Of a DNA stretch of 64,000 bases, positions 2,106 through 58,846 are shown piece after piece; the first letter of the stretch is position 1, and the number at the start of each line of letters is the position of its first letter. The translations under genes and the position numbers were made by a program. The notes under the pieces are model-generated. The model was given only the letters and a program-made list of their open reading frames with translations, made no database searches and was not told the origin of the DNA. The stretch spans positions 73,552 through 137,551 of the forward strand of contig JBBCGO010000001.1 of the NCBI GenBank assembly GCA_037200925.1, read 5' to 3'. The DNA is from Candidatus Doudnabacteria bacterium (GTDB taxonomy: Bacteria > Patescibacteriota > Doudnabacteria > UBA920 > O2-02-FULL-48-8).

Positions 2106-2190
2106 ATAAATATAGAATAGGTATAATCTATTTTCATTATAACACAAGCAAAAATATAATTTCGCCGGTATCGCGTTTATAAGACGAAAC

Positions 2191-3708: not shown

Positions 3709-3712
3709 CGGA

Positions 3713-4738: not shown

Positions 4739-4753
4739 ATTATAGCATAGGAT

Positions 4754-6226
4754 TTGACGCTTCTTCCCATGAAACTAAAACGCTATTATTTTTATTTAGT
4801 CGCAGCCTTGGCTCTTCTGATAGTTGGGTTGATCTTTGTTTATGCCGGTTCTGCCAAAGGCTTGAAGTTAGCTTCAATATTTGAACAGGGCAACCGTTCC
4901 TCGCACACCATCGTGCTTTCCAAGGGCGGCTTCAGTCCCGGCAACCTTACCATAAAAAAAGGGGATTGGGTGACTTTCACCACTACTGCCGGTCAGCAAT
5001 TTTGGCCGGCCTCAGACCCTCACCCTACACACAGCATCTATCCGGATTTTGATCCGAAACGGCCTGTCGATCCGGGTAAATCATGGAGTTTTCAGTTTGA
5101 AAAAGAAGGAACTTTCCCGTATCACGATCACTTTATTCCAAGCCTGGGAGGAACCATTGTCGTCGGCCACGCGAGTGAGATCGGAGAGAATTGCGCTGAA
5201 GATACTCAAAATCAATATTTGTGTTGGTCGAAAATGATCGATGAATCTTTGCGCAATAACGGGCTTAATTCAGCTTTCTCGCTGGTAGAAAACTTATATC
5301 AGACGCAGCCGGCATTTGCCGGCGATTGCCACCTGTTCCTTCACAAGCTGGGACAGGCGGCCTATGAAGAATTTGCAGATAAACAGGACATTGCCTTGAC
5401 CAGCGCGTCCGCCTACTGCGGTTACGGGTTTTATCACGGTTTTATGGAAAGTCTGCTTATGCAGTCGAACAATTATTCTAAGGCTTTGGAGTTTTGCCAA
5501 AAAGTTTCAGCAGAAATGTCGCAATCCTTGTCTGATGCGTGTTATCATGGAGTAGGGCATGGCGCCATGGCCGTGGGCACTATTGACCAAGCGACCTGGG
5601 GCAAGCCCGATTCTTTGGTAAGCAAGGCTTTGGCGATCTGCAATAAAGTGGCAGACTCTTCGGTAAATGTCGCGCGCTGCGCTTCCGGCTCGTTCATGGA
5701 AATTTCAAGTTATTTGTCGGGCAGCCAGTATGGTTTGTCCGCAGACGCAAAAAATCCGCTGAAGATATGCCAAGCTCAAACCGCAGAAGACATAAAAACG
5801 ACCTGCTATGCCCAGATGTATCCTGTTCTGCAGGCAGTGAGCCGCGGGAGCGTGCCCGCTGCGATCAAATATATAGAAGCGATCCCGGAAGATAATTACG
5901 CGGAAGAATCGGTAGAAACCCTTCTCGGGTCCATGGCCGGGATAAACAGCGATCAGTCAAAAAACGTGCAGGCTTGCTCTGCGGCGCAAAAGCGCCTGCA
6001 AGCCAAGTGTATCAGCGGAATTGCCTTAAGCTTTATGCTGAACGGCACACCTAACGAACAGTATAAGCAGGCGGCCGCCTTCTGCAGCACCGGCGGTTTG
6101 ACGGGCATTGAGAGAGATTCGTGTTATGATCTGATCGTAAATGAATCCAAGAATACTTATTCTGGTTCTCAGCTCCAAAATGCCTGCCAATCCCTGCCCA
6201 GTTATTATCAAAAAAAATGTTTGTAA
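4754..6226 (+). CDS. Secreted cupredoxin-like + His/Cys-rich domain protein (paralog 2)
   Basis: 'WPASDPHPTH...YHDHF', then 'CHLFLHKLG', 'CGYGFYHGF', 'CYHGVGHGA'. N-terminal TM helix. Confidence 0.6.
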   Translation: MTLLPMKLKRYYFYLVAALALLIVGLIFVYAGSAKGLKLASIFEQGNRSSHTIVLSKGGFSPGNLTIKKGDWVTFTTTAGQQFWPASDPHPTHSIYPDFDPKRPVDPGKSWSFQFEKEGTFPYHDHFIPSLGGTIVVGHASEIGENCAEDTQNQYLCWSKMIDESLRNNGLNSAFSLVENLYQTQPAFAGDCHLFLHKLGQAAYEEFADKQDIALTSASAYCGYGFYHGFMESLLMQSNNYSKALEFCQKVSAEMSQSLSDACYHGVGHGAMAVGTIDQATWGKPDSLVSKALAICNKVADSSVNVARCASGSFMEISSYLSGSQYGLSADAKNPLKICQAQTAEDIKTTCYAQMYPVLQAVSRGSVPAAIKYIEAIPEDNYAEESVETLLGSMAGINSDQSKNVQACSAAQKRLQAKCISGIALSFMLNGTPNEQYKQAAAFCSTGGLTGIERDSCYDLIVNESKNTYSGSQLQNACQSLPSYYQKKCL

Positions 6227-7281
6227 AAAATAACCGCAAATTTTTTATTATCGCCGTCGCGCTGATCTTATTTTTCCTGGGCGAATTGTTATTTTTGTCA
6301 GGCAAATTCCGGTCCGTCAAACCCGAGGCCAAGCCGGTTGCGGTAAACAGCCCGCCTGCAGATGCCGAAAAAACGGATCAAAGTTTGCAAATTTCCGCAC
6401 TGGAGCAGAAAGTGAAAGACGATCCCAATGATGCGAATTCGTCGAACAACCTGGCCAGTCTATATTTTCAAACCGGAAAATTTGACCAGGCCAAAGATCT
6501 ATATTCTAATGTTCTCAAAATCAATCCGAAAGACGTCGGAGCGATGACCGGTTTGGCGAATGTCCTGCGTTACCGCGGAGAATATGCCGAATCAGAAAAA
6601 TTGTATCTGGAAGCGATAAAAATCGATCCGGGCAATGCCTGGTCATACATTGATTTCGGGAAACTCTATCGTGACTGGAATAAACCGGCCCAAGCCGAAG
6701 CGGTTTTAATGCAAGCCGCGAAACTCAACCCCAAAGATGATAGGATATATTCTTACGGCCTGGGGTTTTTGTACAGAGATGAAGGCCGGCTTCCCGAAGC
6801 GGAAAAAATGTTCAACAAAGCCCTTCAGCTGAACCCGAATGATTATAATTACATGTCCATGGGCGATATTTACCGCGATGAGGGCAAATTTGCGGAATCA
6901 GAAACCATGTTCAAAAAAGCCCTTGAGTTAAATCCCTTGAACGAAGCTTATATGGGTATGGGGTATCTATACCTTCAGGAAGGTAAATTGGATAAAGCTG
7001 AAGAATCTTTTCAAACGTACTTGAAGCTGATCAAGCCGAAAAGCGAGGTCTATGAAGGCTTGGGCTACATCTATATCTCACAGGGCAAGCTTGCCGACGC
7101 GGAGAATGCGTTCAAAAACTCCATTGCAGTCAACCCGCACTTGTTCGGATATTTGGGCTTAGCCAGGGTCTATAATGTTGAAGGCAAGAAAGACGAAGCC
7201 ATACAGGCATTGAAAAAATCCATTGAATTGAATCCGGATGACAAAGCGGGGCCGGCCTTACTTAAACAATTGGAAGGATGA
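6217..7281 (+). CDS. TPR-repeat protein with N-terminal TM helix
   Basis: About eight degenerate 34-aa TPR units ('LASLYFQTGKFDQAKDLYSNVLKINPKD', 'YMGMGYLYLQEGKLDKAEESF'). Start overlaps the upstream stop, and its stop overlaps the next start (ATGA at 7278). Confidence 0.75.
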   Translation: MFVKNNRKFFIIAVALILFFLGELLFLSGKFRSVKPEAKPVAVNSPPADAEKTDQSLQISALEQKVKDDPNDANSSNNLASLYFQTGKFDQAKDLYSNVLKINPKDVGAMTGLANVLRYRGEYAESEKLYLEAIKIDPGNAWSYIDFGKLYRDWNKPAQAEAVLMQAAKLNPKDDRIYSYGLGFLYRDEGRLPEAEKMFNKALQLNPNDYNYMSMGDIYRDEGKFAESETMFKKALELNPLNEAYMGMGYLYLQEGKLDKAEESFQTYLKLIKPKSEVYEGLGYIYISQGKLADAENAFKNSIAVNPHLFGYLGLARVYNVEGKKDEAIQALKKSIELNPDDKAGPALLKQLEG

Positions 7282-8468
7282 GAACTTTAGCCAACAAAAA
7301 TTTTTTTCTTGTTCTCGCTGCCGCGATTTTGCTTGCCGGTTTGATTTTGGTTTTAGCTCATGCCAAAACCAGATCTCTTGCCGCCGGCAAGCAACAAACA
7401 TCTGCTGGGACCGACTGCTCCGCTTCAAACAACCAAGAGCTATGCTGGCAGCAGCAGATGAAACAGACATTGCAATCGCAAGGCCTGCCCGCGGCATTTG
7501 ATATACTGGCAAATCTTTACGACACTGCGCCGGCGTTTGCCTCGCAGTGCCATGCCTTTACCCACGAGCTGGGCCAGGAGGCATATGAAATGTTCGCATC
7601 GCACCAGGACTTCGAGCTTAATTCCAAAACCCAGTATTGCGGTTACGGGTTCTATCACGGTTTTATGGAAACGCTGCTGCAGAGCACAGGCGATGTCAGT
7701 CAGGCGCAGAATTTTTGCGCCTATGTCGGAAAGAAGCTTGCCGGCCAAACGTCCGACGGCGAGGGCGCCTGTTATCACGGCATCGGCCATGGCGCCGTCG
7801 ACGGCACGGATATAAAAGCCTGGGGAAACCCGCAGGCAATGATCGATCCCAGCTTAAAGCTTTGCAAATTTGCTTCCGGCGACAACCAGCAATTTTTATA
7901 CCGCTGCGTGACGGGTGTTTACAATGCTTTGGAAATACTTTCTTCTGACCCCCAGTACAAGCTGACAATGATCCAGAAAAATCCTTTCTGGCTGTGTCCG
8001 AGCCAGCCGGAATTTTATAAAGAACCGTGTTACACGAATATGCTGCCGTCCCTGCTTAGGTTTACAAATAATGACTTGGTGAAATCCGAGAAAATGATAG
8101 AAAAAATTCCTGAACAGACAGCCATAAAAACCACTGTCTCATACAGCCTGTTCCATGAATTTATCCGGCTGAATTTGGAGCGGCCGAATTATAATATAGA
8201 AAATGGCGTGCAGATCTGCCACGGTCTGGCAGACCCTTACCGTCTGTCATGTATCGAAGGCTTGGCCGGCGGACACATGAAATACGGCGATCCCCAACAG
8301 GCGTACGTCAAAGGCCTGGCGTTTTGTAAAATGCCGATCTTGAAAAGCGACGAAGAGGATTCATGCTATAATACAATCCTGACACGCCTGCCGATCTGGT
8401 ATTCTCCGGCAAAATCCGCTGAGATCTGCAGTTCCGTGGATGTAAAATTCCAAACTTACTGCCGATAA
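7278..8468 (+). CDS. Secreted His/Cys-rich domain protein (paralog 3; no fused cupredoxin domain)
   Basis: 'CHAFTHELG', 'CGYGFYHGF', 'CYHGIGHGA'. Same Cys spacing as the C-terminal halves of 2191 and 4754. Confidence 0.6.
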   Translation: MRTLANKNFFLVLAAAILLAGLILVLAHAKTRSLAAGKQQTSAGTDCSASNNQELCWQQQMKQTLQSQGLPAAFDILANLYDTAPAFASQCHAFTHELGQEAYEMFASHQDFELNSKTQYCGYGFYHGFMETLLQSTGDVSQAQNFCAYVGKKLAGQTSDGEGACYHGIGHGAVDGTDIKAWGNPQAMIDPSLKLCKFASGDNQQFLYRCVTGVYNALEILSSDPQYKLTMIQKNPFWLCPSQPEFYKEPCYTNMLPSLLRFTNNDLVKSEKMIEKIPEQTAIKTTVSYSLFHEFIRLNLERPNYNIENGVQICHGLADPYRLSCIEGLAGGHMKYGDPQQAYVKGLAFCKMPILKSDEEDSCYNTILTRLPIWYSPAKSAEICSSVDVKFQTYCR

Positions 8469-8475
8469 ACTTTTT

Positions 8476-8913
8476 ATGAATAAAAAAATAATAATTATTC
8501 TGCTGTGCGTCATTGTGCTTGTTCTGGGAGTCTACGCTTATAAATTAGCTTTCGTAAAGCCGTCTGACGCGGGGACAAGCCAGGCTGACTCAAATTCCGA
8601 ACCGGCTAAGTTTTCGACCCAGGATAAAATATTGCCGACCGATGTCGTCGTGAAAGTGACGGACAACGGTTTTGTGCCGGACTCGGTTACTGTTAAAAAA
8701 GGGACTCCGGTCGTGTGGCTGAACCAGACCAGCAGTTTTGTCTGGCCGGCGTCCGACCCACACCCCCTGCATACGGACTATCCCGGGTTCGATCCGCAGG
8801 AGCCGTTCAAGAATGGCGAAACTTGGGCTTTTACTTTTGACCGCGTGGGAAATTGGGGATACCATAACCACCTGCAGCCCAGCATGAAGGGAACTGTGCA
8901 CGTAACTGAATGA
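8476..8913 (+). CDS. Stand-alone cupredoxin-like domain protein with N-terminal TM
   Basis: 'WPASDPHPLHTDYPGFDPQEP...GNWGYHNHLQPSMKGTVHV' matches the N-terminal domains of 2191 and 4754. Lies immediately downstream of the His/Cys-domain gene, so it looks like a domain split in permuted order. Confidence 0.6.
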   Translation: MNKKIIIILLCVIVLVLGVYAYKLAFVKPSDAGTSQADSNSEPAKFSTQDKILPTDVVVKVTDNGFVPDSVTVKKGTPVVWLNQTSSFVWPASDPHPLHTDYPGFDPQEPFKNGETWAFTFDRVGNWGYHNHLQPSMKGTVHVTE

Positions 8914-10077: not shown

Positions 10078-10202
10078 GCATTTTGCTATCATTTGACAAA
10101 TCCGGGCGAAAGGTGTAAATTATTGTGTTATAGTAGAGATATAGGATTCTTCTTTTTCGGTTATTCAGTTATGTATAATTTTTGGCCTCCAAGGAGGATG
10201 CC

Positions 10203-10940
10203 ATGCGACGGTTGATCATCTCGTTCGTGTTTGTGCTTGCGGCACACGCTCACGCGTTCGCCGCGGATCCGCCCGGACCGGTTCAGCAGGCCTACAGCGA
10301 GCGGCAGCTGACCGCAATCGAAGCGGCCATCGGCGATTCTGCTGCCGTGATCTGGCAAGCTGCTAATCAGCAATCGGCCGAGGTCAAGACCAAGCTTGTC
10401 TTGGGACTTGAAACGAACAGGAAGAAGAACGGGTTCGTTCTCCTGGACGGGAACAAGCCGCTGATCGGTCTCTTGCAGCAGCAGTATGACAAACTGAAGC
10501 CAGGGAACCCGCGTCCCGTTGTGATCCATTTGTTCCGTAGCAATTCGGAGCAATTCAACACAATCGGCGACGATGTCTACCTCGATGCCGCCACTGTCAG
10601 AGGACTTTCAGGGATGGCGGGCGGACAACTCGTCCTGCTCGGAATTCTGGCTCATGAAGTCAGCCACGAACCTGCCGACTTCGCGCGAATCCAGCTGTTC
10701 GGATCGCAGAATTTCACGCCGGATCTGAAAAAGATCCTCATACAGCGCCTTGAAAATCGCACAGATGAACGTGCAGTCAAGATGCTGGAAGATGCAGGGC
10801 TTGACCCCGCCGTGATGATCCGCGTTGTTCAGATGCTCATCGAGAGCAATCCGAATGAAGCCACGCGGCTCGCGGCTCGGAAGGGCCGGATCGAAGAAGT
10901 GATCAAAGCCCGCACTGTGGCTACCGCCGGCTCGCGCTAA
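10203..10940 (+). CDS. Secreted HExxH (zincin-like) metallopeptidase-like protein; GC-rich cassette
   Basis: Signal peptide 'MRRLIISFVFVLAAHAHAFA', then 'LAHEVSHE' HExxH. About 58% GC with G/C-ending codons. AAGGAGG sits 5 nt before the ATG; the ORF track starts at 10182. Confidence 0.55.
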   Translation: MRRLIISFVFVLAAHAHAFAADPPGPVQQAYSERQLTAIEAAIGDSAAVIWQAANQQSAEVKTKLVLGLETNRKKNGFVLLDGNKPLIGLLQQQYDKLKPGNPRPVVIHLFRSNSEQFNTIGDDVYLDAATVRGLSGMAGGQLVLLGILAHEVSHEPADFARIQLFGSQNFTPDLKKILIQRLENRTDERAVKMLEDAGLDPAVMIRVVQMLIESNPNEATRLAARKGRIEEVIKARTVATAGSR

Positions 10941-11075: not shown

Positions 11076-11561
11076 ATGGGAAACAAAAAAAACCTTACAA
11101 TACTTGCGGTTTTAACGCTAATTTTTGTAACCGGGGTTTATTTGGCTTATAGATATAGGACCCCGGTACACCAGGTTCAAATCGGTCTTTTTGATGAAAC
11201 TGAGTCGCCCGACGCAGCCTATACGATTACTTTCCCTAATGTAACCAGAATGGTTTTTAGCCCCGACCAGAAGCCTTTAAGCGATTTGGTTTATTCCTTG
11301 AATTCCGGGCCCCAATATTTTATTGTTACCTATAATAACGGTAAAAAGGGTGATGAGGTTACTTTCAATGCAATTGGCACGGTAGATGAATTAATGAGTT
11401 TTTATTCAGGTCAAAAAAATTATCAGGTCATAAAAAAATACAGTAATGACAAGCAAGGCTTTGTAGAGTTAATCCAAGGCACGACAAGCATCAGGGTTTT
11501 ACTGATACAGCAAACCCCAGCTACGACGGTAAAAGTTACTATTCAAGGAATAACCAATTGA
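11076..11561 (+). CDS. Small N-terminally anchored membrane protein (module partner 1)
   Basis: N-terminal TM, then a ~130-aa beta-rich domain ending 'TTVKVTIQGITN'. Stop is 1 nt before the next start. Confidence 0.5.
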   Translation: MGNKKNLTILAVLTLIFVTGVYLAYRYRTPVHQVQIGLFDETESPDAAYTITFPNVTRMVFSPDQKPLSDLVYSLNSGPQYFIVTYNNGKKGDEVTFNAIGTVDELMSFYSGQKNYQVIKKYSNDKQGFVELIQGTTSIRVLLIQQTPATTVKVTIQGITN

Positions 11562-11562
11562 T

Positions 11563-13059
11563 ATGAAACGTAACTTATATTATTTATTGGCTTTCTTGTT
11601 CCTGGTTTTTATTGTTTTATCGCCGTCCAAAGAAGCGAAGGCGAACTCCACAACGTGTTACACGGCGGAAGGGACCGGAGGATCCGAGAATTTTTATTGT
11701 ACCCCGGCAAACGGATATACATGTGATTGCGGCGCTAACAGTGCCAGTTGTACCGATAACGGATCATATACTTGGCACGATGCCTATGGGAATTCCGGAA
11801 CTTGCTGGTCGGGATCAACTTGTAGCTGCACCACTACTTCCTATTCTTGTGGGGGCGGATCTACCTGCGATGGTCCTGTAAATGGAACCGGAAACGGCAC
11901 TCCCGGACAGACCGTTTGCGGTACGAACGGATGGACGTACACCTGCACTGCTCCGGGAAGTTGGATCGGGGGGCCGGGTTTTGGAAGTACATGTCCTGCT
12001 TGCTATTCTCAATCATCCTACTACTCTCAATCCAGTTATTACTCCCAATCATCCTACTACTCTCAATCCTCCTACTATTCCCAATCTTCTTATTACTCCC
12101 AAGCAGCCTACTACGCCCAATCAGCATACTACTCTCAGGCAACCTATTATAGTCAAGCAACTTATTACTCCCAAGCCGCCTACTACGCCCAATCAGCATA
12201 CTACTCTCAAGCAACCTATTATAGTCAGGCAACCTACTACTCCCAGGCAGCATATGTAGTAGCTCCCACAGCCCCGACCCTGACCAAAGTGGATAATATC
12301 AATACCGATGCTTCGGTGCCCTGTTCTAAGCTGAAAGTAACCTGGACTGATAACTCCGGCAATGAAACCGGCTTCATAGTCCTGCGATCAACCACATCAG
12401 GCTCAGGGTATGCCAATATCTCAGGCAACCTGCCTGCCCAGAGCGGCACAGGCACCTTTGGCACTTACCTGGATACCCCTCCTTCCACCGGAGTGACCTA
12501 TTTCTATGTGGTCCAGGCCTTCAATGCCGGGGGCAACAGCCAGTCAAACGAGAAGAGCATCATGAACGTTGTCTGTTCTGCCAACTTTGCCAATACAACG
12601 AAGTTTGTCAGTAAGGTCAACGGCAACCCCTATAGTCCCAGCACTTCAGTCAATAACGGGGATACCCTGACCTACCAGATCACCCTGGTCAATTCCGGCC
12701 CTTCTGCAGCCACGGTCAACTACATCTGCGACACTGTCTCTTCCAACCTGACCAATCTTAGGAACCTGACGGTTACAGGCCCGGGCTCTGTTAATGGGGG
12801 ACTGACAGCCAACAGCCCTACCTGCTCCGGTAATTATCTGTTTAACATCTCAGGCAACAAGGATGTGACCAATAACTGGATCATTACCTATGATGCCAAT
12901 GTCAGCACCGCATCCGCCGATATCCAGGAAGTGGTGACCAATACCTTTACCATCCATTACACTGATTCTTCAGCCAAAAGCTTCTCAGGCTCAGCCCCGA
13001 ACATCATTGTCAATTCCTCCACAGGCAAGACCCCGATCATCAGGGAAGTCGGGCCGTAG
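11563..13059 (+). CDS. Secreted Cys-rich protein with (S-Y-Y-S-Q)n pentapeptide tandem repeat, Fn3-like and DUF11-like domains (repeat protein A)
   Basis: Signal/TM, then a Cys/Gly/Thr-rich module. About 17 copies of 'SYYSQ' variants follow, then 'KVTWTDNSGNETGF...YFYVVQAFNAGG' (Fn3-like) and 'GDTLTYQITLVNSG' (DUF11-like). Confidence 0.6.
   Translation: MKRNLYYLLAFLFLVFIVLSPSKEAKANSTTCYTAEGTGGSENFYCTPANGYTCDCGANSASCTDNGSYTWHDAYGNSGTCWSGSTCSCTTTSYSCGGGSTCDGPVNGTGNGTPGQTVCGTNGWTYTCTAPGSWIGGPGFGSTCPACYSQSSYYSQSSYYSQSSYYSQSSYYSQSSYYSQAAYYAQSAYYSQATYYSQATYYSQAAYYAQSAYYSQATYYSQATYYSQAAYVVAPTAPTLTKVDNINTDASVPCSKLKVTWTDNSGNETGFIVLRSTTSGSGYANISGNLPAQSGTGTFGTYLDTPPSTGVTYFYVVQAFNAGGNSQSNEKSIMNVVCSANFANTTKFVSKVNGNPYSPSTSVNNGDTLTYQITLVNSGPSAATVNYICDTVSSNLTNLRNLTVTGPGSVNGGLTANSPTCSGNYLFNISGNKDVTNNWIITYDANVSTASADIQEVVTNTFTIHYTDSSAKSFSGSAPNIIVNSSTGKTPIIREVGP
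11998..12255 (+). repeat. Imperfect 15-bp tandem repeat (~17 units) encoding the SYYSQ pentapeptide array in repeat protein A
   Basis: 'tactactctcaatcc / agttattactcccaatcatcc...' has period 15. Equivalent arrays lie at 13969..14040 and 14167..14395 in protein B and 17646..17873 in protein C. Confidence 0.85.
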
Positions 13060-13105
13060 AAATGTTCGAAAAAGTCTGATAAAATAAATTATAAACACAA
13101 AATTT

Positions 13106-13678
13106 ATGGCAAACAGATATATCGCTTTGATCATAGTTTTGATAGCTCTCGCGATCGGGGGAGTATTCATCGGAGTTGTGTATTGGATCAATTTCCCGGT
13201 CAAAGCTCCTGCAACCGGACAAACAAGCACCACAACAACCAGCGCGTCTGCGGTAAATCCGGCTCCTTCACTCCCTCAAGCAGTCCCTGCCTCAACTCCC
13301 GAAGATTTGCTGAAAGTAATGCGCACGTATGCAAAAATCTCCGTCCCGGAAATTGCCTCGCAAACAGATGCCACAGCCAAGGACATACCCAGTCCCATTG
13401 CCACTTTACTCGGATCACAAACAAACTTAAAGGTAACAGCTGTGAATTATGCGAACAAATCATCCGGGCTTATTATTGAATTTGCAGAGCCGAAAAATGT
13501 TCAGGATACTTTTACCATATTCCGTCACCCCAGCAGCGATTGGAACGTATTGTCGGGAACTAATGCTCCTATGGCCGCTTTAGTTGATCTGGATAATGCC
13601 AATTACTCTGTTGTAATTGAATTGAGCCAAGTTGCGGATACCCAAACAGCGGTAAAGACCTGGGTCATAAAGAAGTAA
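13106..13678 (+). CDS. Small N-terminally anchored membrane protein (module partner 2)
   Basis: TM 'IALIIVLIALAIGGVFIGVVYWI', a Thr/Ser/Pro linker, then a beta-rich domain ending 'TAVKTWVIKK'. Confidence 0.5.
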   Translation: MANRYIALIIVLIALAIGGVFIGVVYWINFPVKAPATGQTSTTTTSASAVNPAPSLPQAVPASTPEDLLKVMRTYAKISVPEIASQTDATAKDIPSPIATLLGSQTNLKVTAVNYANKSSGLIIEFAEPKNVQDTFTIFRHPSSDWNVLSGTNAPMAALVDLDNANYSVVIELSQVADTQTAVKTWVIKK

Positions 13679-13698
13679 TGAATTAAATAAACAACAGT

Positions 13699-15174
13699 TT
13701 GAAACAAATACGCAAACAATTAGTGCTGTATATTGTGCTAGGCCTTGCAACTGCCATGGTATTTTTTGCAGTGCCTCATTCTTCAGCTGATACGATTTGG
13801 TGTTCTACTTTCCAATTTTGCAATGGAGGCGCTTCCTGTGCACCAAATCCATCAATGGCTCCAACCGATTGCCCTTCTACTGGCCATTGTTCAGATAATG
13901 GTTTTTCAATATGCGGCGATTTTCTTTATTGCGATAATGGTAATTATGCCATTTGCGATGCAACATACTCCCAATCCTCCTACTACTCCCAATCCAGTTA
14001 TTACTCCCAGGCAGCCTATTATTCCCAACCATCCTATTATTCTGAACCGCAATATTATCGCTGGCAGGGAGGCGGGGGATGCATATGTATGCCGGCCAAT
14101 CCAGGTGACTGCGTCATAACCAACACTGCAAATTGCACGGTAAACTCTAACTGCGCTGGTCTTCCTGCCTGCTACTCTCAATCCTCCTACTATTCCCAAT
14201 CAGCTTACTACGCCCAATCAGCATATTACTCCCAATCAGCATACTATTCTCAAGCGTCATATGGCGGCGGTTATTCCCAAGCAGCTTACTACGCCCAGTC
14301 TGCATACTATTCTCAGGCAGCCTATGCGGGTTACTCTGAAGCATCCTACTATTCCCAAGCAGCCTACTATGCCCAGGCATCGTATGTCTCTGCTCCAACC
14401 GCTCCTTCAGGCGTGGCTGTGGACAATGGCACTTGCGGCCAATTGACCGTGACCTGGACTGATAATTCCAACAATGAGACCGGTTTTACAATATGGAGAT
14501 CAACCACATCAGGCTCAGGGTATGGCCAGGTCGGCAGCGTAGGCCCTAATATTACGTCATTCCCAGACACCCCTCCTACCCCAGATATGACCTATTATTA
14601 TGTGGTCCAGTCGGTCAATGCCGGAGGAAGCACCCAGTCAGTATTAGAAGCAAGCGCTTACGACAACCCGTGTGTTGCCAATTTATCCGGGACCGCCAAG
14701 GTCTTAACCCAGATCAACGGCGCAGCCTATTCTTCAAGCACTTCCATCAACGCCGGGGACGTGCTGACATACCAGATCACGATCATCAATTCCGGCAATG
14801 CCCCTGCTGATATCACTTTCATCTGCGACACCGTCTCTTCCAACCTGACCAATCTTCGGAACCTGACGGTTACAGGAACCGGCTCTTCGGGTTCAGGTTC
14901 TGCCATAGTATCCAACGGCGGCTGCGGAGCAGGCAGCTACAAGTTCAACGTTACAGGAGCCAAACAGCCCTCTCCTCCTGACCCAGGCAACTGGATAATT
15001 ACCTATGATGCCACAGTCACCCCGGCCAGTGCTGATATCCAGGAAGTGGTGACCAACAGCTTTGTCATCCATTACAACAACAACGGAGCTAAAACCTTTG
15101 CAGGCTCCTCCCCGAGCATCCTCATCAATGCCTCAGCAGGCCAGGCCCCGAACTTCCATGAAGTGACGCCGTAG
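13699..15174 (+). CDS. Secreted Cys-rich SYYSQ-repeat / Fn3-like / DUF11-like protein (repeat protein B)
   Basis: Same architecture as protein A. Its 3' ~1 kb is ~99% identical to 17646..18656. Confidence 0.6.
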   Translation: MKQIRKQLVLYIVLGLATAMVFFAVPHSSADTIWCSTFQFCNGGASCAPNPSMAPTDCPSTGHCSDNGFSICGDFLYCDNGNYAICDATYSQSSYYSQSSYYSQAAYYSQPSYYSEPQYYRWQGGGGCICMPANPGDCVITNTANCTVNSNCAGLPACYSQSSYYSQSAYYAQSAYYSQSAYYSQASYGGGYSQAAYYAQSAYYSQAAYAGYSEASYYSQAAYYAQASYVSAPTAPSGVAVDNGTCGQLTVTWTDNSNNETGFTIWRSTTSGSGYGQVGSVGPNITSFPDTPPTPDMTYYYVVQSVNAGGSTQSVLEASAYDNPCVANLSGTAKVLTQINGAAYSSSTSINAGDVLTYQITIINSGNAPADITFICDTVSSNLTNLRNLTVTGTGSSGSGSAIVSNGGCGAGSYKFNVTGAKQPSPPDPGNWIITYDATVTPASADIQEVVTNSFVIHYNNNGAKTFAGSSPSILINASAGQAPNFHEVTP

Positions 15175-15177
15175 AAT
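14167..15177 (+). repeat. Direct duplication, copy 1 (~1010 bp, ~99% identical to 17646..18656)
   Basis: The antisense ORFs in the track (14147.., 14261.., 14367.., 14727..) are identical to 17643.., 17739.., 17845.., 18205... Only a few substitutions differ, e.g. cctgacccaggc vs ccggaccccggc. Confidence 0.9.
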
Positions 15178-15394
15178 GCTTAGGCGATAAATTTGATTTA
15201 GCGACCAAAGAGCAGCTTAGAGATAGGCCGCTCTTTGTTTTATCCTATTTCTATTGACAGTATCATTATTTGCGAGTAAACTGATATATTACGATACTAA
15301 TACCGTAGCGGCTTGCTCTACTTAAAGAATAGTGTCGCAACCAAGCCTTTCAAAAAAGGTTTAAAGAATTCAATCCGCAGGAGGGTGTGATTTT

Positions 15395-15799
15395 ATGAAG
15401 CGTCTAGTCGCCTTAGCTTTCGGCTCGCTGTTCGTCGCGGCCTGCAGCAAGGAAATGCAGTCGCCCGCAGCTCCCGCCGCGCCTCAGCCGCAGGCCACGG
15501 TCTCTGTGCTTGGCACACTGTCGCTCGTCAGTTGCGATGACGGCGGCCCGGGCCATGGCACTCCCGCCTGCACTTTCTCGGGAATCGTCCGGAACAACGG
15601 ACCGGATTGTGCCGCAGGTATCCAGGGGACCACGACCGTCTTAGTTCAATTTGGCGGCGTGGCTCAGTCATGGAGCGTTAACGCCACGTTGCGGCCTCAA
15701 GAAACGACGCAGTTCACTGTTTTTGGCTTCAGTCAGGGAGAGATCCAAACGGGCAAGCCGGAATCTTCGGCTTCAGCCAGAGGGGTAACCTGCCCGTAG
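15395..15799 (+). CDS. Small lipoprotein (lipobox 'FVAAC'); GC-rich cassette
   Basis: 'MKRLVALAFGSLFVAACSKE', about 62% GC. GGAGGG ribosome-binding site upstream; hairpin plus 'TTTTCTTTTT' downstream. Confidence 0.5.
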   Translation: MKRLVALAFGSLFVAACSKEMQSPAAPAAPQPQATVSVLGTLSLVSCDDGGPGHGTPACTFSGIVRNNGPDCAAGIQGTTTVLVQFGGVAQSWSVNATLRPQETTQFTVFGFSQGEIQTGKPESSASARGVTCP

Positions 15800-15914
15800 C
15801 GAATTCACGCGGAGAGCGTTCATTTTCAAGTGAACCTCTGCCGCGTTTTCTTTTTGCCTGACCTTGCAAATTTTTGTTTTTAATCATGCTATAATTCACT
15901 TGAAGTTTTAATTT

Positions 15915-16628
15915 ATGAAACTAATTCCCAAGCGCTATTTGATAATAGTAAGCATCTTTGTCATCGGAATATTTTTAACCGTTGCAGCTTACAGCACGCT
16001 TCGCTTTCATGAGAAAAATAAAACACCAGTTTCTGCGGACAGCGCAAAGTCTGAACCTATCGTCCGATCACCTCAGGAAATGCTTAAGGAGCTGAGCAGG
16101 AACTCCCCTCAATTAGGAAGTCCAAACGCCCCGATTCAGGTCGTGGAATTTGCGGATTTTCAATGCCCATACTGCGAACAGTTTTATGCCACTGCTTTTA
16201 ATCAGATAAATGATAAGTATGTTAAAACAGGAAAGGTAAAATTTATTTTTGCCGACGCCCCGATCATCGGAGAAGAGTCGACGATCGCGGCCCGCGGAGG
16301 CAAGTGTGCGGATGAGCAGGGAAAATTTTGGGACTATTACAATTATTTGTTTCAGCATCAGAAACCCGAGAATAACGGCAACCTGAGAACATCTAATTTG
16401 AAAAAGATAGCTTTGCAGATCGGTCTCGATGGAGAGCAGTTTGACGCTTGCCTGGATTCGCAAAAATACGCTTCCGAGGTATCTGATGAATTGAAACTTT
16501 TCGGCGTGCTTGGCATTACCGGGACGCCTGGATTTGTCATTAATGATCAGGTAGTATCAGGCTATAAAGCGGGGGTAATTCAGGGGATAATTGATAAAGA
16601 ATTGAAGTCTATCGATCCGAATCCTTGA
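15915..16628 (+). CDS. DsbA/thioredoxin-family thiol:disulfide oxidoreductase, membrane anchored
   Basis: 'VVEFADFQCPYCEQF' CPYC active site, plus an N-terminal TM. Confidence 0.8.
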   Translation: MKLIPKRYLIIVSIFVIGIFLTVAAYSTLRFHEKNKTPVSADSAKSEPIVRSPQEMLKELSRNSPQLGSPNAPIQVVEFADFQCPYCEQFYATAFNQINDKYVKTGKVKFIFADAPIIGEESTIAARGGKCADEQGKFWDYYNYLFQHQKPENNGNLRTSNLKKIALQIGLDGEQFDACLDSQKYASEVSDELKLFGVLGITGTPGFVINDQVVSGYKAGVIQGIIDKELKSIDPNP

Positions 16629-16694
16629 CATTTGCCTGATTTGTTTTTTTATTGTATATTAAATTTGCTGTAATACCCCAAAAAATGAAATAAA

Positions 16695-17252
16695 ATGAAT
16701 AAAGCAGTCAAATGGGTTCTTATTGTAATCTTGATTTTGGGTGTAATAATCAGTGCTGGGTTCCTTGCAGTGAAATACTGGCCTAAGAATACCAATTCTC
16801 AGGCGAACATTCTTCAAAGAGAACAAGCAGCGGATGCCTATGTTCCAAGCAAAGACCCGGCAGCTGATCTGGCGGCAGACAAACAGAAACTTCTTAAGCT
16901 CGCTACGTTAAATTTTCTGGCGATTGATACGTCTGAGGTTTCCGATGTGCCTTCGGATCTGAATTTTTTGAAGATAAAGGATGCCACAAATTTAGTATCA
17001 AATAAAGTCAGCTACACTGACGGTTCAAATGGATTTTTGATAACAATGGATCTGGATTATCCTCTGTTTTCCGCCTATCAGACCGAAGCCAGGAGCATAC
17101 ACTATGAACAAGGCTGGAGCCAGATTTATGGAGCTATCACTAATACATTTGCTTTGCTGGAAGCAAAAAATAATACCAATCAGATCCAGATCAGGTTTAC
17201 AAGATTATCAACCGAACTTACAACCGTCGAGATTAAAGTACTGACGAAATGA
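16695..17252 (+). CDS. Small N-terminally anchored membrane protein (module partner 3)
   Basis: TM 'WVLIVILILGVIISAGFLAV', beta-rich domain ending 'TTVEIKVLTK'. Its stop overlaps the next start (ATGA). Confidence 0.5.
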   Translation: MNKAVKWVLIVILILGVIISAGFLAVKYWPKNTNSQANILQREQAADAYVPSKDPAADLAADKQKLLKLATLNFLAIDTSEVSDVPSDLNFLKIKDATNLVSNKVSYTDGSNGFLITMDLDYPLFSAYQTEARSIHYEQGWSQIYGAITNTFALLEAKNNTNQIQIRFTRLSTELTTVEIKVLTK

Positions 17253-18652
17253 CAATATCAAACAAATTTTTATTCATAATTATTATTTTGGCGAGTGTTG
17301 GGGCTCTGTTTGTTACTGTAAAAATTAGCAATGCACAGACTTGTTGGACTTATGGCTGTGATGGGGTGAGTGGTGAATGCAGGGTTGCCGGCAATACTTG
17401 CGGGGGCGGACAGACTTGTGTGGATCAAGGTTTTGTAACTTGCCCTGCGGGCGGGTGCGGCGAATCTTTTAGCTGCGTGACTTCTTATTCCCAATCATCC
17501 TATGTATACAACACCCCCTACTCTGAACCGCAATATTTTCGGTGTTCAGGGAGCGCACAAAGCGTATGCATTCCGGCTAATCCCGGCGACTGCACCATAG
17601 GTAATACTGCAAATTGTTCAGTAAATAATAACTGCAGCCCTATTACCTGCTACTCTCAATCCTCCTACTATTCCCAATCAGCTTACTACGCCCAATCAGC
17701 ATATTACTCCCAATCAGCATACTATTCTCAAGCGTCATATGGCGGCGGTTATTCCCAAGCAGCTTACTACGCCCAGTCTGCATACTATTCTCAGGCAGCC
17801 TATGCGGGTTACTCTGAAGCATCCTACTATTCCCAAGCAGCCTACTATGCCCAGGCATCGTATGTCTCTGCTCCAACCGCTCCTTCAGGCGTGGCTGTGG
17901 ACAATGGCACTTGCGGCCAATTGACCGTGACCTGGACTGATAATTCCAACAATGAGACCGGTTTTACAATATGGAGATCAACCACATCAGGCTCAGGGTA
18001 TGGCCAGGTCGGCAGCGTAGGCCCTAATATTACGTCATTCCCAGACACCCCTCCTACCCCAGATATGACCTATTATTATGTGGTCCAGTCGGTCAATGCC
18101 GGAGGAAGCACCCAGTCAGTATTAGAAGCAAGCGCTTACGACAACCCGTGTGTTGCCAATTTATCCGGGACCGCCAAGGTCTTAACCCAGATCAACGGCG
18201 CAGCCTATTCTTCAAGCACTTCCATCAACGCCGGGGACGTGCTGACATACCAGATCACGATCATCAATTCCGGCAATGCCCCTGCTGATATCACTTTCAT
18301 CTGCGACACCGTCTCTTCCAACCTGACCAATCTTCGGAACCTGACGGTTACAGGAACCGGCTCTTCGGGTTCAGGTTCTGCCATAGTATCCAACGGCGGC
18401 TGCGGAGCAGGCAGCTACAAGTTCAACGTTACAGGAGCCAAACAGCCCTCTCCTCCGGACCCCGGCAACTGGATAATTACCTATGATGCCACAGTCACCC
18501 CGGCCAGTGCTGATATCCAGGAAGTGGTGACCAACAGCTTTGTCATCCATTACAACAACAACGGAGCTAAAACCTTTGCAGGCTCCTCCCCGAGCATCCT
18601 CATCAATGCCTCAGCAGGCCAGGCCCCGAACTTCCATGAAGTGACGCCGTAG
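17249..18652 (+). CDS. Secreted Cys-rich SYYSQ-repeat / Fn3-like / DUF11-like protein (repeat protein C)
   Basis: Divergent Cys-rich N-terminus. From 'CYSQSSYYSQSAYY' to the stop it is ~99% identical at the nt level to protein B. Confidence 0.6.
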   Translation: MTISNKFLFIIIILASVGALFVTVKISNAQTCWTYGCDGVSGECRVAGNTCGGGQTCVDQGFVTCPAGGCGESFSCVTSYSQSSYVYNTPYSEPQYFRCSGSAQSVCIPANPGDCTIGNTANCSVNNNCSPITCYSQSSYYSQSAYYAQSAYYSQSAYYSQASYGGGYSQAAYYAQSAYYSQAAYAGYSEASYYSQAAYYAQASYVSAPTAPSGVAVDNGTCGQLTVTWTDNSNNETGFTIWRSTTSGSGYGQVGSVGPNITSFPDTPPTPDMTYYYVVQSVNAGGSTQSVLEASAYDNPCVANLSGTAKVLTQINGAAYSSSTSINAGDVLTYQITIINSGNAPADITFICDTVSSNLTNLRNLTVTGTGSSGSGSAIVSNGGCGAGSYKFNVTGAKQPSPPDPGNWIITYDATVTPASADIQEVVTNSFVIHYNNNGAKTFAGSSPSILINASAGQAPNFHEVTP

Positions 18653-18700: not shown

Positions 18701-18784
18701 GACCACGTTTCCTTTAGTCGAGGGGAAGCTAATTAAAACATAGGGTGCTGAATAGGTTTCCCTTTGTTTGAAGGTTCATATAAA

Positions 18785-19135
18785 ATGGGTAAGAAATTGT
18801 TTGTCGGAGGCCTGCCTTACACCACAACCAGCGACGATCTGAAGAATCATTTCGCCGCAGCGGGAAATGTGGTTACAGCGCAAGTCATTACCGACAAGTT
18901 CTCCGGCCGATCCAAAGGATTTGGATTCGTGGAGATGTCATCCGACGACGAAGCAGCCAAGGCGATTGAAATGTTCAACGGCACTGACTTCGGCGGACGC
19001 TCTTTGGCTGTAAACGAAGCAAGGCCAAAGACCGAAGGCGATCGCGGAGGCAGTCGCGGCGGATTCGGCGGCGGACGCGGCGGCAGTGACCGCGGCGGGT
19101 ACGGCGGTGGCGGCGGTCGAAGAGACAGCTATTAA
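18785..19135 (+). CDS. Glycine-rich RNA-binding protein, single RRM
   Basis: RNP-2 'LFVGGL', RNP-1 'KGFGFVEM', C-terminal 'GGSRGGFGGGRGGSDRGGYGGGGG'. GAAGG ribosome-binding site before the ATG at 18785; the ORF track starts at 18764. Confidence 0.85.
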   Translation: MGKKLFVGGLPYTTTSDDLKNHFAAAGNVVTAQVITDKFSGRSKGFGFVEMSSDDEAAKAIEMFNGTDFGGRSLAVNEARPKTEGDRGGSRGGFGGGRGGSDRGGYGGGGGRRDSY

Positions 19136-19214: not shown

Positions 19215-20636
19215 ATGAAAAAATCTGAATTAGTTTTCAATTTAATCTCGATCTTGTCGGATATTATTATGGTGCTATTGGCCGGGATCATTGCGTTTTA
19301 TTTGCGCCTGCAGTTGGAAAGCTTGCGTCCGATCTTGTACGTTTTATCATTATCTTCATATCTGAAAGTTTTATTTCTCATCACCCCGGTGATTATTCTT
19401 TTAATGGCCTTGGCCGGGCTGTACAATCTTACGGGCACAAGACGGATATCATCTGAACTGCTGAAGATCATTTTGGTGATCTCTTCCGTGCTGTTAGTGG
19501 TGGTGATCTTATTTTTCTTTAATCAAAGCGTTTTTCCGTCCCGCCTGATCATCCTGCTGACGTGGATTTTGACGATAGTACTGATCAGTTTTGGCAGAAT
19601 AATCTTGAGGCTTATCCAGATCCGTATGCTGAGGCGGGGTGTAGGTTTGCACCGCCTGGTGGTACTGGGGGCAGCTGACCAAACATACGAATTGGTAGTG
19701 GAAATTTCTTCGCGGCCCGAGCTGGGGTTTAGAATTGTCGGGAAACTTGATACCGGCCAATCGGTTGATGATCTGATCGACCGGTTGAGGCATATCAGAG
19801 AGAATTCCGGTATAGACGGGCTTTTGCAATCTGATCCGTTTTTGGACCAGGAGGTCGGACGTAAGATCCTGCAATTCTGCCGCGACTACGGCATCAGATT
19901 TAATTTCGTGCCGAACCTGTTCGAAACCTCTACGGCCAATATCGCTGTGGAAACTATTTCCGGCATTCCGGTCATCGCACTGAAGGGAACCCCGCTGGAG
20001 GGCTGGGGTATGGTTGTCAAAAGATTAGTTGATATAATAGTATCTTTGCTGGGCTTGATCATCTTAAGTCCTGTATTTTTGCTGGTGGCGGTCGCGATCA
20101 AACTTAACTCCAAAGGCCCGGTGTTTTTTCACCAGCTCAGAGCTGCGGGTTTGGGCGAATTTGAATTTTATAAATTCCGGTCAATGCATCATGAAATGAG
20201 CGAAGGGACAGAGTCGGGAGATAAACTTCGCGAAGAGCTGGAAAAGCACAATGCGCGCATCGGGCCGTACGTTAAGATCAAGAACGATCCGCGCGTGACT
20301 TCCGTCGGCAGATTCCTGCGCAAGACCAAGCTCGATGAGATGCCGGCGCTCTGGCATATCCTGCGCGGACAAATGAGCCTGGTGGGCCCCCGGGTTCACA
20401 TGGTCAAAGAAGTTGACCATTTCCGGAATGAGTATAAGAAGTTGTTTATCATCAAGCCCGGAGCCACTGGACTTACCCAGATCACTCAAGCCACGGACAA
20501 CCCGGAAATATCCTGGGAAGACGAGATCAAGTTGGACGAGTTTTACATAGAAAACTGGTCCATTTGGCTTGATCTGTATATCATCTTCAAAACTTTTTTA
20601 ATTTTGCTTGGCCGTAAACCCAAGGTTGATTATTGA
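19215..20636 (+). CDS. Polyprenyl-phosphate sugar phosphotransferase (bacterial sugar transferase, WbaP/CpsE-like)
   Basis: Multi-TM N-terminus. C-terminal '[25 protein letters not shown]...KFRSM...[20 protein letters not shown]' matches the Bac_transf domain. Confidence 0.85.
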
Positions 20637-34974: not shown

Positions 34975-35100
34975 TGTATAATTAATCCAACAACTGAATA
35001 TATATCAAGAGTGGCGGTGAAAGCTCTGGCTTTATGACCCGCCCGGCAACCCTCAACAAGAGAAGGTGCCAATTCCAGCCTCTAACGAGGAAAGATAATA

Positions 35101-35130
35101 AAAAAACTTTCCTTCCGGAAGGTTTTTTTG
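35101..35130. terminator. Bidirectional rho-independent terminator between convergent genes
   Basis: 'aaaaaaactttCCTTCCGGAAGGttttttt': a perfect 12-bp palindrome flanked by A and T tracts. Confidence 0.8.
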
Positions 35131-35147
35131 TAAAAAAAGAAGCCTCG

Positions 35148-58725: not shown

Positions 58726-58846
58726 AAAAAAATTCTTGACCCGAGCTCCAATGGGTCAAGAAAGACAATATTGGTTTCGAGTCGGTATAAATTGAATGAC
58801 AACTAATTTTAACTTTTTTTGGCCGTTTTGTCAATACTTTGATAAA

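Follow-up and report, generated by a model that had tools for sequence, protein, structure and literature searches.

A candidate cell-surface cassette pairing small membrane-anchored proteins with tyrosine-rich secreted proteins in a Doudnabacteria bacterium

Background

Attachment to other cells is believed to be the usual way of life in the candidate phyla radiation (CPR) of bacteria, and to our knowledge almost nothing is known of their surface proteins besides type IV pili. Here we describe three tandem gene pairs in a 64,000-nucleotide (nt) stretch of contig JBBCGO010000001.1 of a Candidatus Doudnabacteria bacterium (positions 73,552 to 137,551; henceforth, the window). Each pair codes for a small membrane-anchored protein (S1, S2, and S3) followed by a large protein predicted to be secreted (L1, L2, and L3). 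The closest described counterparts of the L proteins are the Gram-positive fibrillar adhesins and sortase pilins, such as the SpaA/RrgB-type pilins, antigen I/II, and the Ig-like PrgB. In contrast to these, the L proteins lack an LPXTG motif, a C-terminal helix, and a charged tail and instead end in ...EVxP; the isopeptide-forming Lys is not conserved in their family; they possess just one Fn3 and one Ig-like domain, in addition to a Tyr-rich array and a Cys-rich part; and their partner is a dedicated upstream S protein rather than a sortase. A second point of reference is provided by the DUF11 surface proteins (PF01345, TIGR01451), to which the C-terminal domain of the L proteins is similar at about the threshold of detection and in forming a β-sandwich in an AlphaFold2 model. 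Unlike DUF11 domains, however, it is present as a single copy rather than in tandem, falls below the Pfam cutoffs for DUF11 and DUF7927, and is followed by a family-specific tail. The Tyr-rich array itself is reminiscent of FUS-type [S/G]Y[S/G]Q domains, of low-complexity aromatic-rich kinked segments (LARKS), and of curli and Fap, the likeness consisting of uncharged, Tyr/Ser/Gln-rich repetition.

Ig-like surface proteins that are secreted and served by an accessory protein of their own are of a known kind, and what is unusual here is that the S family has no name, that the EVxP tail is portable, and that the array is so rich in Tyr. The S family has about 180 representative sequences and a confident structural model; the invariant tail is borne by large secreted proteins without a known anchor; and the array is a strictly periodic run of Tyr-rich hexapeptides that is also found in unrelated secreted proteins. 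The sequence evidence points to the cassette being an undescribed cell-surface protein system. As a tentative explanation, which we favor, it would be a cell-envelope cassette restricted to the CPR lineage and made up of fibril-like surface proteins and a cognate membrane-tethered accessory protein. An initial annotation of the window had proposed a dedicated surface module suited to an episymbiont. Of this proposal, the pairing and the kinship of the S proteins were confirmed and all members are extracytoplasmic by prediction; the source, a metagenome-assembled genome, belongs to a CPR lineage, so that the episymbiont lifestyle fits as general background only.

Three coupled gene pairs with a mosaic pattern of divergence

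All six open reading frames (ORFs) of the initial annotation were recovered at their coordinates (Table 1), and the two-gene unit indeed occurs three times on the plus strand. The translational coupling claimed for it also holds, with the S and L genes spaced by 1 nt in the first pair and 20 nt in the second and overlapping by 4 nt in the third, where the stop codon of S3 and the start codon of L3 share the sequence ATGA. Between the second and third pairs lie two further genes, one coding for a DsbA-like protein, already recognized as sitting inside the array of genes, and the other for a predicted lipoprotein that had been missed. The assignment of the former is supported by its Pfam matches (Thioredoxin_4, E = 5.2e-32, 111.8 bits; DSBA, E = 2.7e-17, 63.6 bits) together with a CPYC motif, which constitutes the CxxC active site of a thioredoxin-family oxidoreductase. 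The lipoprotein, on the other hand, has no family match in Pfam or NCBIfam. Each S protein has a single N-terminal hydrophobic helix and no Cys, whereas each L protein has a signal-peptide-like N terminus and 18 Cys residues. Marks of export, namely, signal peptides, membrane anchors, a lipobox, the 18 Cys per L protein, and a DsbA nearby, are distributed across the cluster, and all of its members are accordingly predicted to be extracytoplasmic. The 13 successive perfect hexapeptides in L1 (see below) and the three coupled homologous pairs are far beyond chance expectation.

Comparison of the pairs module by module revealed that they have not diverged evenly. Identity is 20 to 25% among the S proteins and 31 to 46% among the N-terminal parts of the L proteins, as against 81 to 100% in the array and 56 to 100% in the C-terminal cassette. 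The extreme case is a 1,009-nt segment at the 3' end of L2, which is identical to the corresponding segment of L3 save for two synonymous substitutions; it covers the array and the C-terminal cassette, over which the two proteins are 100% identical, whereas their N-terminal parts show 46% identity. Such near-identity points to gene conversion or to a partial duplication that took place recently. Given that the 3' parts of L2 and L3 match in this way while the identity between S2 and S3 is only 23%, the set of modules is best described as a mosaic rather than as a simple recent triplication, with a fast-diverging half (S and the L N terminus) and a homogenized half (the array and the C-terminal cassette). 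The notion of a recent expansion therefore applies to the 3' 1 kb common to L2 and L3 but not elsewhere. Even if neither of the functional proposals considered below for the tail and the array were to hold, the locus would still be an example of modular evolution, in which a variable tip and its partner stand beside a homogenized stalk. The region also differs in composition, with a strongly negative GC skew over positions 12001 to 16000 (-0.20 and -0.12 in two 2-kb bins) relative to the rest of the window, which probably stems from the C-rich codons of the array (TAC, TCC, and CAA).

The S family of membrane-anchored proteins

The three S proteins belong to one family despite their low pairwise identity. 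BLASTP links S2 and S3 over their full length (E = 2e-5, 23% identity) but does not link S1 to either, for which reason profile methods were needed for S1. An exhaustive profile search seeded with S2 and S3 against 1.84 billion cluster representatives recovered 181 proteins at E <= 1e-3, 17 of them at E <= 1e-10, nearly all 160 to 220 amino acids (aa) in length; word-indexed homologue searches with S2 alone or with the S-family profile returned almost nothing. Against a profile of 50 members, S1 aligned over 107 columns with a probability of 96% in hhalign (E = 3.7e-9), and hmmsearch retrieved it with the S-family profile at E = 3.9e-11. S1, S2, and S3 are, therefore, members of a single family whose proteins cross the membrane once and bear a small α/β ectodomain, in support of the grouping made by the initial annotation.

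The 50-member alignment displays the membrane helix, a Pro/Thr/Ser-rich linker, and a succession of conserved motifs (K..FP, LP..L, V.Y....G..I.Y, a W, and E.EN..YQ) before a final strand with the consensus T.V.I....K. The C-terminal strand by which the initial annotation had related the three proteins corresponds to this last β-strand of the family. An AlphaFold2 model of S2 built from the same alignment (mean predicted local distance difference test score [pLDDT], 91.7) has a helix at residues 3 to 29, a low-confidence linker, and a compact α/β domain at residues 65 to 189, predicted to contain three short helices and seven strands. The model bears only a modest resemblance to solved folds. 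Its fold class, an antiparallel sheet backed by helices, is one that is usual in small envelope accessory proteins, and as modeled it gives no functional pointer.

No member of the 50-sequence alignment had a match better than E = 1e-3 in the Pfam copy searched. DUF3568 (PF12092) was hit by S3 only and at 16.8 bits against a cutoff of 23.2, which places the S proteins outside DUF3568. More generally, S has no sequence membership in the small Mog1/PsbP-like and Bet v1-like groups, which include the Eag/DUF1795 chaperones SciW and PA0094, DcrB, Mtc28, and DUF3568/Flpp3; it is anchored via a membrane helix and not a lipid, and the match to these folds spans only about 90 residues and does not tell them apart. 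Assignment of S to the Eag (DUF1795), DcrB, or Mog1/PsbP-like families was thus rejected at the sequence level.

A distant S relative (hhalign probability, 94%) is the 165-aa anchored protein encoded at positions 6812 to 7309 of metagenomic contig L027, downstream of a gene for a 1,425-aa secreted protein. (Contigs and their loci are denoted here by three-digit L numbers and individual database proteins by P numbers.) It is annotated with Pfam PF27226 (AF_1845), a family missing from the Pfam copy searched, and for S1 to S3 no match to that family is on record. The S family may border on this newer Pfam entry.

Architecture of the L proteins and their C-terminal tail

The L proteins share an order of elements consisting of a signal peptide, a variable Cys-rich part, the Tyr-rich array, an Fn3 domain, a DUF11-like Ig domain, and a conserved tail. 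The APTAP linker reported after the array is present in all three. Searches of all cassette proteins against Pfam, NCBIfam, and PHROGs retrieved, beyond DsbA, only threshold-level Fn3 and DUF11 matches, the PHROGs match being limited to the Fn3 segment. The DUF11-like label of the initial annotation is thus to be read as a threshold-level similarity: TIGR01451 (DUF11 repeat; cutoff, 24 bits) scores 25.5 bits in L1 but 22.1 to 22.2 bits in L2 and L3; Pfam DUF11 (PF01345) reaches 17.6 to 18.7 bits against a cutoff of 24.6; and Pfam DUF7927 and fn3 (PF00041) also remain under their cutoffs. An AlphaFold2 model of L1, based on a shallow alignment, is confident only for the Fn3 domain (residues 239 to 334) and the C-terminal β-sandwich (346 to 477), with pLDDT below 50 in residues 20 to 232, i.e., the Cys-rich part and the array, and in the last 23 residues (476 to 498). 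An Ig-like stalk fold is present in L. No relative of the C-terminal domain turned up in the PDB by sequence-profile search, and Foldseek comparison of the L1 model with the PDB produced generic tandem Ig and Fab matches only. Together with the lack of an LPXTG motif in L and of a Pfam family for S, this agrees with the initial view that the ensemble does not belong to any named surface-protein system.

Homologues of L were traced to about 11 metagenomic contigs. A protein database search yielded one true homologue, P0001, with 48% identity over the Fn3 and C-terminal domains, all other matches being confined to either the Fn3 domain or the repeat array. Another 10 loci (L008 to L017) came from a scan of metagenomes with the C-terminal domain, at 45 to 63% identity over all 164 residues. 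All of these homologues have in common the Fn3 domain, the DUF11-like domain, and the extreme C terminus, and their N-terminal halves are wholly different from each other. In the homologue from L009, a Cys-rich part is followed by an array of YPE/YPS tripeptides; in P0001, the N-terminal half carries YEYQYQ and YGTPS repeats; in that from L008, poly-Pro is combined with small Cys-loop repeats; and those from L012 and L017 are multidomain proteins of 957 to 1,040 aa devoid of a Tyr-rich array. The Cys-loop repeats, which read C.D.NA.NYGG.LPC or, alternatively, YGC.DP.A.NYNP.A..DDGSC.Y, are also seen in neighbors of L homologues (L008, positions 2 to 1180 and 2415 to 3992; L017, positions 1941 to 3641 and 3622 to 6495). 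They stand where the proteins of the window have their Tyr-rich array and, in L008, are split by poly-Pro runs.

The L homologues also share the C-terminal tail, ...G[KQ]xPxFxEVxP (or, with Ile admitted in place of Phe, ...[KQ]xPx[FI]xEVxP-COOH), in which E, V, and P do not vary among the 9 sequences aligned. All three L proteins and the nine aligned homologues end in ...EVxP, with no motif or helix beyond it. A similar tail also ends proteins with a PKD-like instead of a DUF11-like last domain (in L025 and L034), and since it thus occurs after both kinds of domain, we consider it a portable C-terminal element. Neither the sequences nor Pfam and NCBIfam searches revealed an LPXTG motif, a C-terminal membrane helix, a lipobox, or a known wall-binding domain in the L proteins, and the first three are likewise absent from every L homologue. 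Sortase-type anchoring was rejected on this account, all parts of the sorting signal (an LPXTG-like motif, a hydrophobic helix, and a positively charged tail) being absent.

An unstructured yet invariant tail next to an Ig-like domain raises the question of whether L proteins might form a pilus-like polymer. By analogy to the chaperone-usher or type V logic, the tail would act as a donor strand that enters the Ig-like domain of the next L protein, and S would be a membrane-bound assembly chaperone. The tight coupling of S and L suggests matched stoichiometry, and the isopeptide-forming fimbrial domain model TIGR04226 does match L at E = 6e-4, albeit at 20.7 to 20.8 bits against a cutoff of 30. 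However, the cassette contains no usher, sortase, or protease partner; the β-sandwich of the AlphaFold2 model is complete, with no evident missing strand; and each L protein carries a large non-pilin N-terminal half. Moreover, 2 of 9 homologues have Val or Tyr in place of the first-strand Lys required for an isopeptide bond, and 1 of 9 has Lys instead of the last-strand Asn, the former of which speaks against the polymer and leaves a conserved isopeptide bond unsupported as a family feature. We regard such polymerization as the least probable of the explanations considered here.

The tyrosine-rich array

Tandem Repeats Finder detected a period of 18 nt in the L arrays, with higher-order periods of 54, 60, and 72 nt (18, 54, and 72 nt in L1). 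Because of this 18-nt period, the unit is a hexapeptide, [SA][SAT]YY[SA]Q, and not the pentapeptide of the initial annotation, whose tally of 14 to 17 units also has to be revised: a regular-expression search for strict units counts 13 in L1, 11 in L2 in two blocks, and 8 in L3, with degenerate units besides. In L1, the 13 perfect units are accompanied by partial end units and organized in the higher-order period of 72 nt. The arrays of the three proteins are composed of 30 to 33% Tyr, 25 to 28% Ser, 14 to 16% Gln, 16 to 23% Ala, and 0 to 5% Gly (in L1, 33% Y, 28% S, 16% Q, 16% A, and 0% G) and are uncharged but for one Glu.

The likeness to FUS-type domains noted initially is hence compositional, in terms of Tyr, Ser, and Gln, and goes no further, in that Gly is nearly absent and the unit is replaced in homologues. 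In contrast to FUS-type domains, the L array is strictly periodic, is built of hexapeptides with a YY pair, contains 0 to 5% Gly and 30 to 33% Tyr, and is predicted to be extracellular, between disulfide-rich and Ig-like domains. The dearth of Gly and the strict periodicity of the YY pairs led us to reject membership in the FUS-like or prion-like class. A functional amyloid system of the curli or Fap type was rejected too, for want of such repeats and partner genes: there is no CsgA- or FapC-type match in Pfam or NCBIfam in L or its neighbors, and the partners here are S, the lipoprotein, and DsbA.

Across the L family, the position of the array is kept and its unit is not, the homologues having YPE/YPS, YEYQ, or YGTPS repeats or, in the cases of L008, L012, and L017, no Tyr-rich array at all. 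Judged from these sequences, Tyr-richness, and not the xxYYxQ unit, is what is conserved across the L homologues. The xxYYxQ array, for its part, is also found in otherwise unrelated secreted proteins (P0019, P0022, P0027, P0033, and P0034 and the product of L031, positions 4001 to 6571). In P0019, it lies ahead of a Hint-like domain (below threshold); P0034 (856 aa) has SpaA-like matches below threshold; and P0033 (287 aa) has an N terminus (GFSLVE) that we take, without Pfam support, to be type IV prepilin-like. This distribution identifies the xxYYxQ array, at the sequence level, as a recurrent low-complexity module of environmental bacteria that is not specific to the L family. A literature search for the xxYYxQ repeat motif and for Tyr-rich or Cys-rich surface proteins of CPR bacteria found nothing relevant. 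In the L proteins, the array may serve as a spacer, as a self-associating segment, or as a substrate for modification; were such arrays to self-assemble or become cross-linked, they would represent an unusual bacterial extracellular material.

Conservation of the pairing and its interpretation

Independent metagenomic contigs with S-family genes show a recurrent neighborhood. In L009, an S-family gene (hmmsearch E = 1e-29) is followed by a lipoprotein gene and then by the closest L homologue, S being two genes upstream of L. In L025, a PKD-type protein ending in ..KPLPKWIEVLPH (..KWIEVLPH) is followed by DsbA, a lipoprotein, and S, the last overlapping, at the end of the contig, the beginning of a protein that has a signal peptide and is rich in Cys and Tyr. 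The contigs L027/L028 have S and, after 5 nt, the 1,425-aa secreted protein mentioned above, which is Cys rich and ends in ..APIIQERP, ahead of the distant S relative. L029 has a cupredoxin-like anchored protein, DsbA, and S, up to the contig end; L026, S next to a cupredoxin-like protein; L030, S overlapped by the beginning of a protein with a signal peptide; L033, S between a Cys-rich protein and a lipoprotein; and L034, a PKD-type protein ending in ..QRIPTWYEVIPRQ (..TWYEVIPRQ) and then S. The DsbA proteins are 34 to 48% identical among themselves across contigs, with orthologues of the DsbA of the window lying upstream of S-family genes in L025 and L029 (34 to 36% identity), and the cupredoxin-like proteins are 42 to 60% identical. 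Because both are shared in this manner, the neighborhood is syntenic over related lineages. Lipoproteins occupy analogous positions in L001, L008, L009, L012, L025, and L033 and have little in common beyond a lipobox and linker.

Whether the pairing is conserved in relatives, a question posed by the initial annotation, thus receives a divided answer. It recurs on independent contigs with S-family genes, but the L homologues of L008, L012, and L017 are preceded by small anchored proteins of other kinds, those of L012 (183 aa) and L017 (161 aa) having been ruled out as S members by the S profile. The evidence from these gene neighborhoods says that the pairing is conserved for the S family and not for every L homologue. 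What emerges from the sequences is a conserved, rare, and lineage-restricted cassette of predicted extracytoplasmic proteins, comprising S, L-type tail-bearing proteins, DsbA, and often a lipoprotein and a cupredoxin-like protein.

CPR genomes are rich in small single-pass membrane proteins and large secreted proteins, and adjacency of S and L could in principle be due to nothing but operon packing of envelope genes, with no functional coupling. The unrelated small anchored families that adjoin some L homologues and the S gene of L032, which has an unrelated ATPase gene downstream, are what one would expect on this account. Nevertheless, all three pairs of the window are coupled, and such coupling is seen again in L025 and L030, where the genes overlap, and in L027, where they are 5 nt apart; the S family accompanies Cys-rich or tail-bearing secreted proteins on no fewer than five independent contigs, which come from different samples; and S and the L N terminus codiverge while the rest of L is homogenized. 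We accordingly give mere packing very little credence.

The main rival to the explanation that we favor assigns S the role of a receptor, with the L tail (...PxFxEVxP-COOH) docking on the membrane-tethered S ectodomain in a two-component display system that anchors L noncovalently. Docking would account for the absence of an LPXTG motif, C-terminal helix, lipobox, and wall-binding domain in L. It would also agree with the tail being the most conserved short element, with the 9-of-9 invariance of its E, V, and P, with its being unpacked in the AlphaFold2 monomer, with the occurrence of similar tails behind unrelated PKD-type domains beside S (L025 and L034), and with the presence of a tail-bearing protein in 5 of the 5 S contexts that have a complete large neighbor. 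If S and the tail did constitute such an anchoring or assembly system, the display of large proteins without sortase signals would be explained. Against this, a receptor would be expected to be conserved, and S2 and S3 are only 23% identical though the tails and C-terminal cassettes of their partners are identical; furthermore, the tail-bearing homologues of L008, L012, and L017 have no adjacent S-family gene. On balance, docking appears unlikely to us.

The same contrast between modules underlies our preference for S as a chaperone: because S codiverges with the L N terminus while the rest of L has been homogenized, a role as a chaperone or holdase for the Cys-rich part is favored. In the cell-envelope cassette that we tentatively propose, L would be exported by Sec, N terminus first, and its Cys-rich part oxidized by the neighboring DsbA. 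The cotranslated S ectodomain, anchored to the membrane on its outer side, would hold or escort L as a cognate-specific chaperone or holdase. The Ig-like cassette and the tail would then form the cell-proximal base of L. The Tyr-rich array would make up an uncharged stalk, either extended or self-associating, with the variable Cys-rich tip facing outward. For a CPR bacterium, a role in contacting other cells or surfaces would be plausible.

Several observations weigh against this proposal. No known anchoring mechanism was found for L, which could, as a consequence, simply be released from the cell. The array has an AlphaFold2 pLDDT of about 22, so that the putative stalk is not amenable to modeling. 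The small proteins upstream of the L homologues in L008, L012, and L017 lie outside the S family, and the S gene of L032 precedes an ATPase gene. Finally, a search of the GTDB species-representative genomes with the L C-terminal domain, in the form of two peptide patterns only, retrieved generic DUF11 proteins and no close relative of L.

Genomic surroundings

The surroundings of the cassette bear on yet another interpretation, in which the arrays are substrates for Tyr-Tyr cross-linking or O-glycosylation and L is a structural component of an extensin-like or glycoprotein-like wall matrix rather than an adhesin. Tyr O-glycosylation of S-layer proteins and Tyr cross-linking of the peroxidase or laccase type are established in other systems. 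Upstream of the cassette is a GT4 glycosyltransferase gene, and downstream, after the gene of an RRM protein, are genes for a Bac_transf priming transferase, two GT4 enzymes, a MurG-like protein, a patatin, and a Mur ligase, with SecA and SecDF genes further downstream. S-layer O-glycosylation loci would combine a priming sugar transferase with an O-oligosaccharyltransferase of the Wzy_C type next to the target protein. In the window, a Bac_transf priming enzyme and GT4 genes are present, and the Wzy_C and PMT families of O-oligosaccharyltransferases were not found among its polytopic membrane proteins. The sole unassigned polytopic protein in the window, which has 608 aa and, by prediction, about eight membrane helices and matches no Pfam family at E <= 1e-4, is hence the only local candidate for a glycosyl- or oligosaccharyltransferase.

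Upstream of S1, the window also codes for a membrane-anchored cupredoxin-like protein with a weak match to Pfam Cupredoxin_1, which is 42 to 60% identical to proteins beside DsbA or S in L026 (positions 1 to 453), L029 (274 to 675), and L009 (3412 to 3786). This stand-alone protein might be involved in metal handling or redox chemistry in the CPR envelope. The retention of Tyr-richness while the unit varies (xxYYxQ, YPE/YPS, YEYQ, and YGTPS), the glycosyltransferases and priming sugar transferase that flank the cassette, and the conserved cupredoxin-like and Cys/His-rich anchored proteins that accompany DsbA and S genes elsewhere are all consistent with modification of the arrays into a wall matrix. 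Besides the lack of a Wzy_C/PMT enzyme, this interpretation is countered by the fact that no oxidase was identified and the cupredoxin matches are weak, by the lack of Tyr-rich arrays in the homologues of L008, L012, and L017, and by the consideration that the glycan and peptidoglycan genes on either side may be no more than ordinary neighbors; we hold it to be rather improbable. A broader conjecture, to which we attach about as little weight, would have the S family and EVxP-tail proteins form a CPR-specific surface-assembly system, with the tail as a helix-free C-terminal sorting or docking signal, S as an assembly factor, and Tyr ladders that self-assemble or are oxidatively cross-linked, possibly via cupredoxin-like proteins, into fibers that attach the episymbiont to its host.

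Table 1. Positions of the cassette and other features in the window
Feature	Coordinates	Strand	Description
16-Cys paralogue 1	2191-3708	+	Membrane anchored; 16 Cys; His rich
16-Cys paralogue 2	4754-6226	+	Membrane anchored; 16 Cys; His rich
16-Cys paralogue 3	7278-8468	+	Membrane anchored; 16 Cys; His rich
Cupredoxin-like protein	8476-8913	+	Membrane anchored; weak Pfam Cupredoxin_1 match; conserved HPxH and YHxH
Secreted protein upstream of S1	10182-10940	+	252 aa; HEVSH (HExxH)
S1	11076-11561	+	161 aa; N-terminal membrane helix, ~120-aa extracytoplasmic α/β domain; no Cys
L1	11563-13059	+	498 aa; predicted secreted
L1 signal peptide	11563-11643	+	
L1 Cys/Gly/Thr-rich part	11644-12003	+	
L1 hexapeptide array	12004-12261	+	Followed by the APTAP linker
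L1 Fn3 domain	12277-12564	+	
L1 DUF11-like Ig domain	12598-12993	+	
L1 conserved tail	12994-13056	+	
S2	13106-13678	+	190 aa; S-family member
L2	13699-15174	+	491 aa; TTG start; predicted secreted
L2 array blocks	13963-14046 and 14173-14391	+	Second Cys-rich insert between the blocks; followed by a C-terminal cassette as in L1 and L3
L2 3' segment	14168-15176	+	1,009 nt; matches 17646-18654 of L3
Lipoprotein gene	15395-15799	+	134 aa; predicted lipobox VAAC, Pro/Ala-rich linker, 5 Cys
DsbA-like gene	15915-16628	+	Membrane-anchored thiol:disulfide oxidoreductase
S3	16695-17252	+	185 aa; S-family member
L3	17249-18652	+	467 aa; predicted secreted
L3 signal peptide	17249-17335	+	
L3 Cys-rich part	17336-17650	+	
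L3 array	17651-17869	+	
L3 C-terminal cassette	17870-18649	+	
RRM-type protein	18764-19135	+	Small RNA-binding protein
Bac_transf priming transferase	19215-20636		
SAM riboswitch	34999-35100	+	RF00162, 57 bits
Polytopic membrane protein	58796-60622	+	608 aa

Other features of the window are of interest in their own right. Directly ahead of the cupredoxin-like gene are three paralogous genes coding for membrane-anchored, His-rich proteins with 16 Cys each, which share the motifs QCHxFxHxLGQxAYE, YCGYGFYHGFME, and ACYHGxGHGA. Two of the three have an N-terminal cupredoxin-like domain (Pfam, 26 to 28 bits), and no other family match was found. Fragments similar to their C termini lie just upstream of DsbA or S in L029 (positions 2 to 268) and L033 (positions 1 to 237). 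The secreted protein encoded directly upstream of S1 contains an HExxH motif and matches Peptidase_M48 at 20.7 bits, against a cutoff of 20.3. The small RRM-type RNA-binding protein, which has a Gly/Arg-rich tail, is encoded between the cassette and the glycan-synthesis genes. A phage origin was rejected, there being no tblastn match in a phage collection. Lastly, the SAM riboswitch lies upstream of, and overlaps the start of, an ORF at positions 35034 to 35525.

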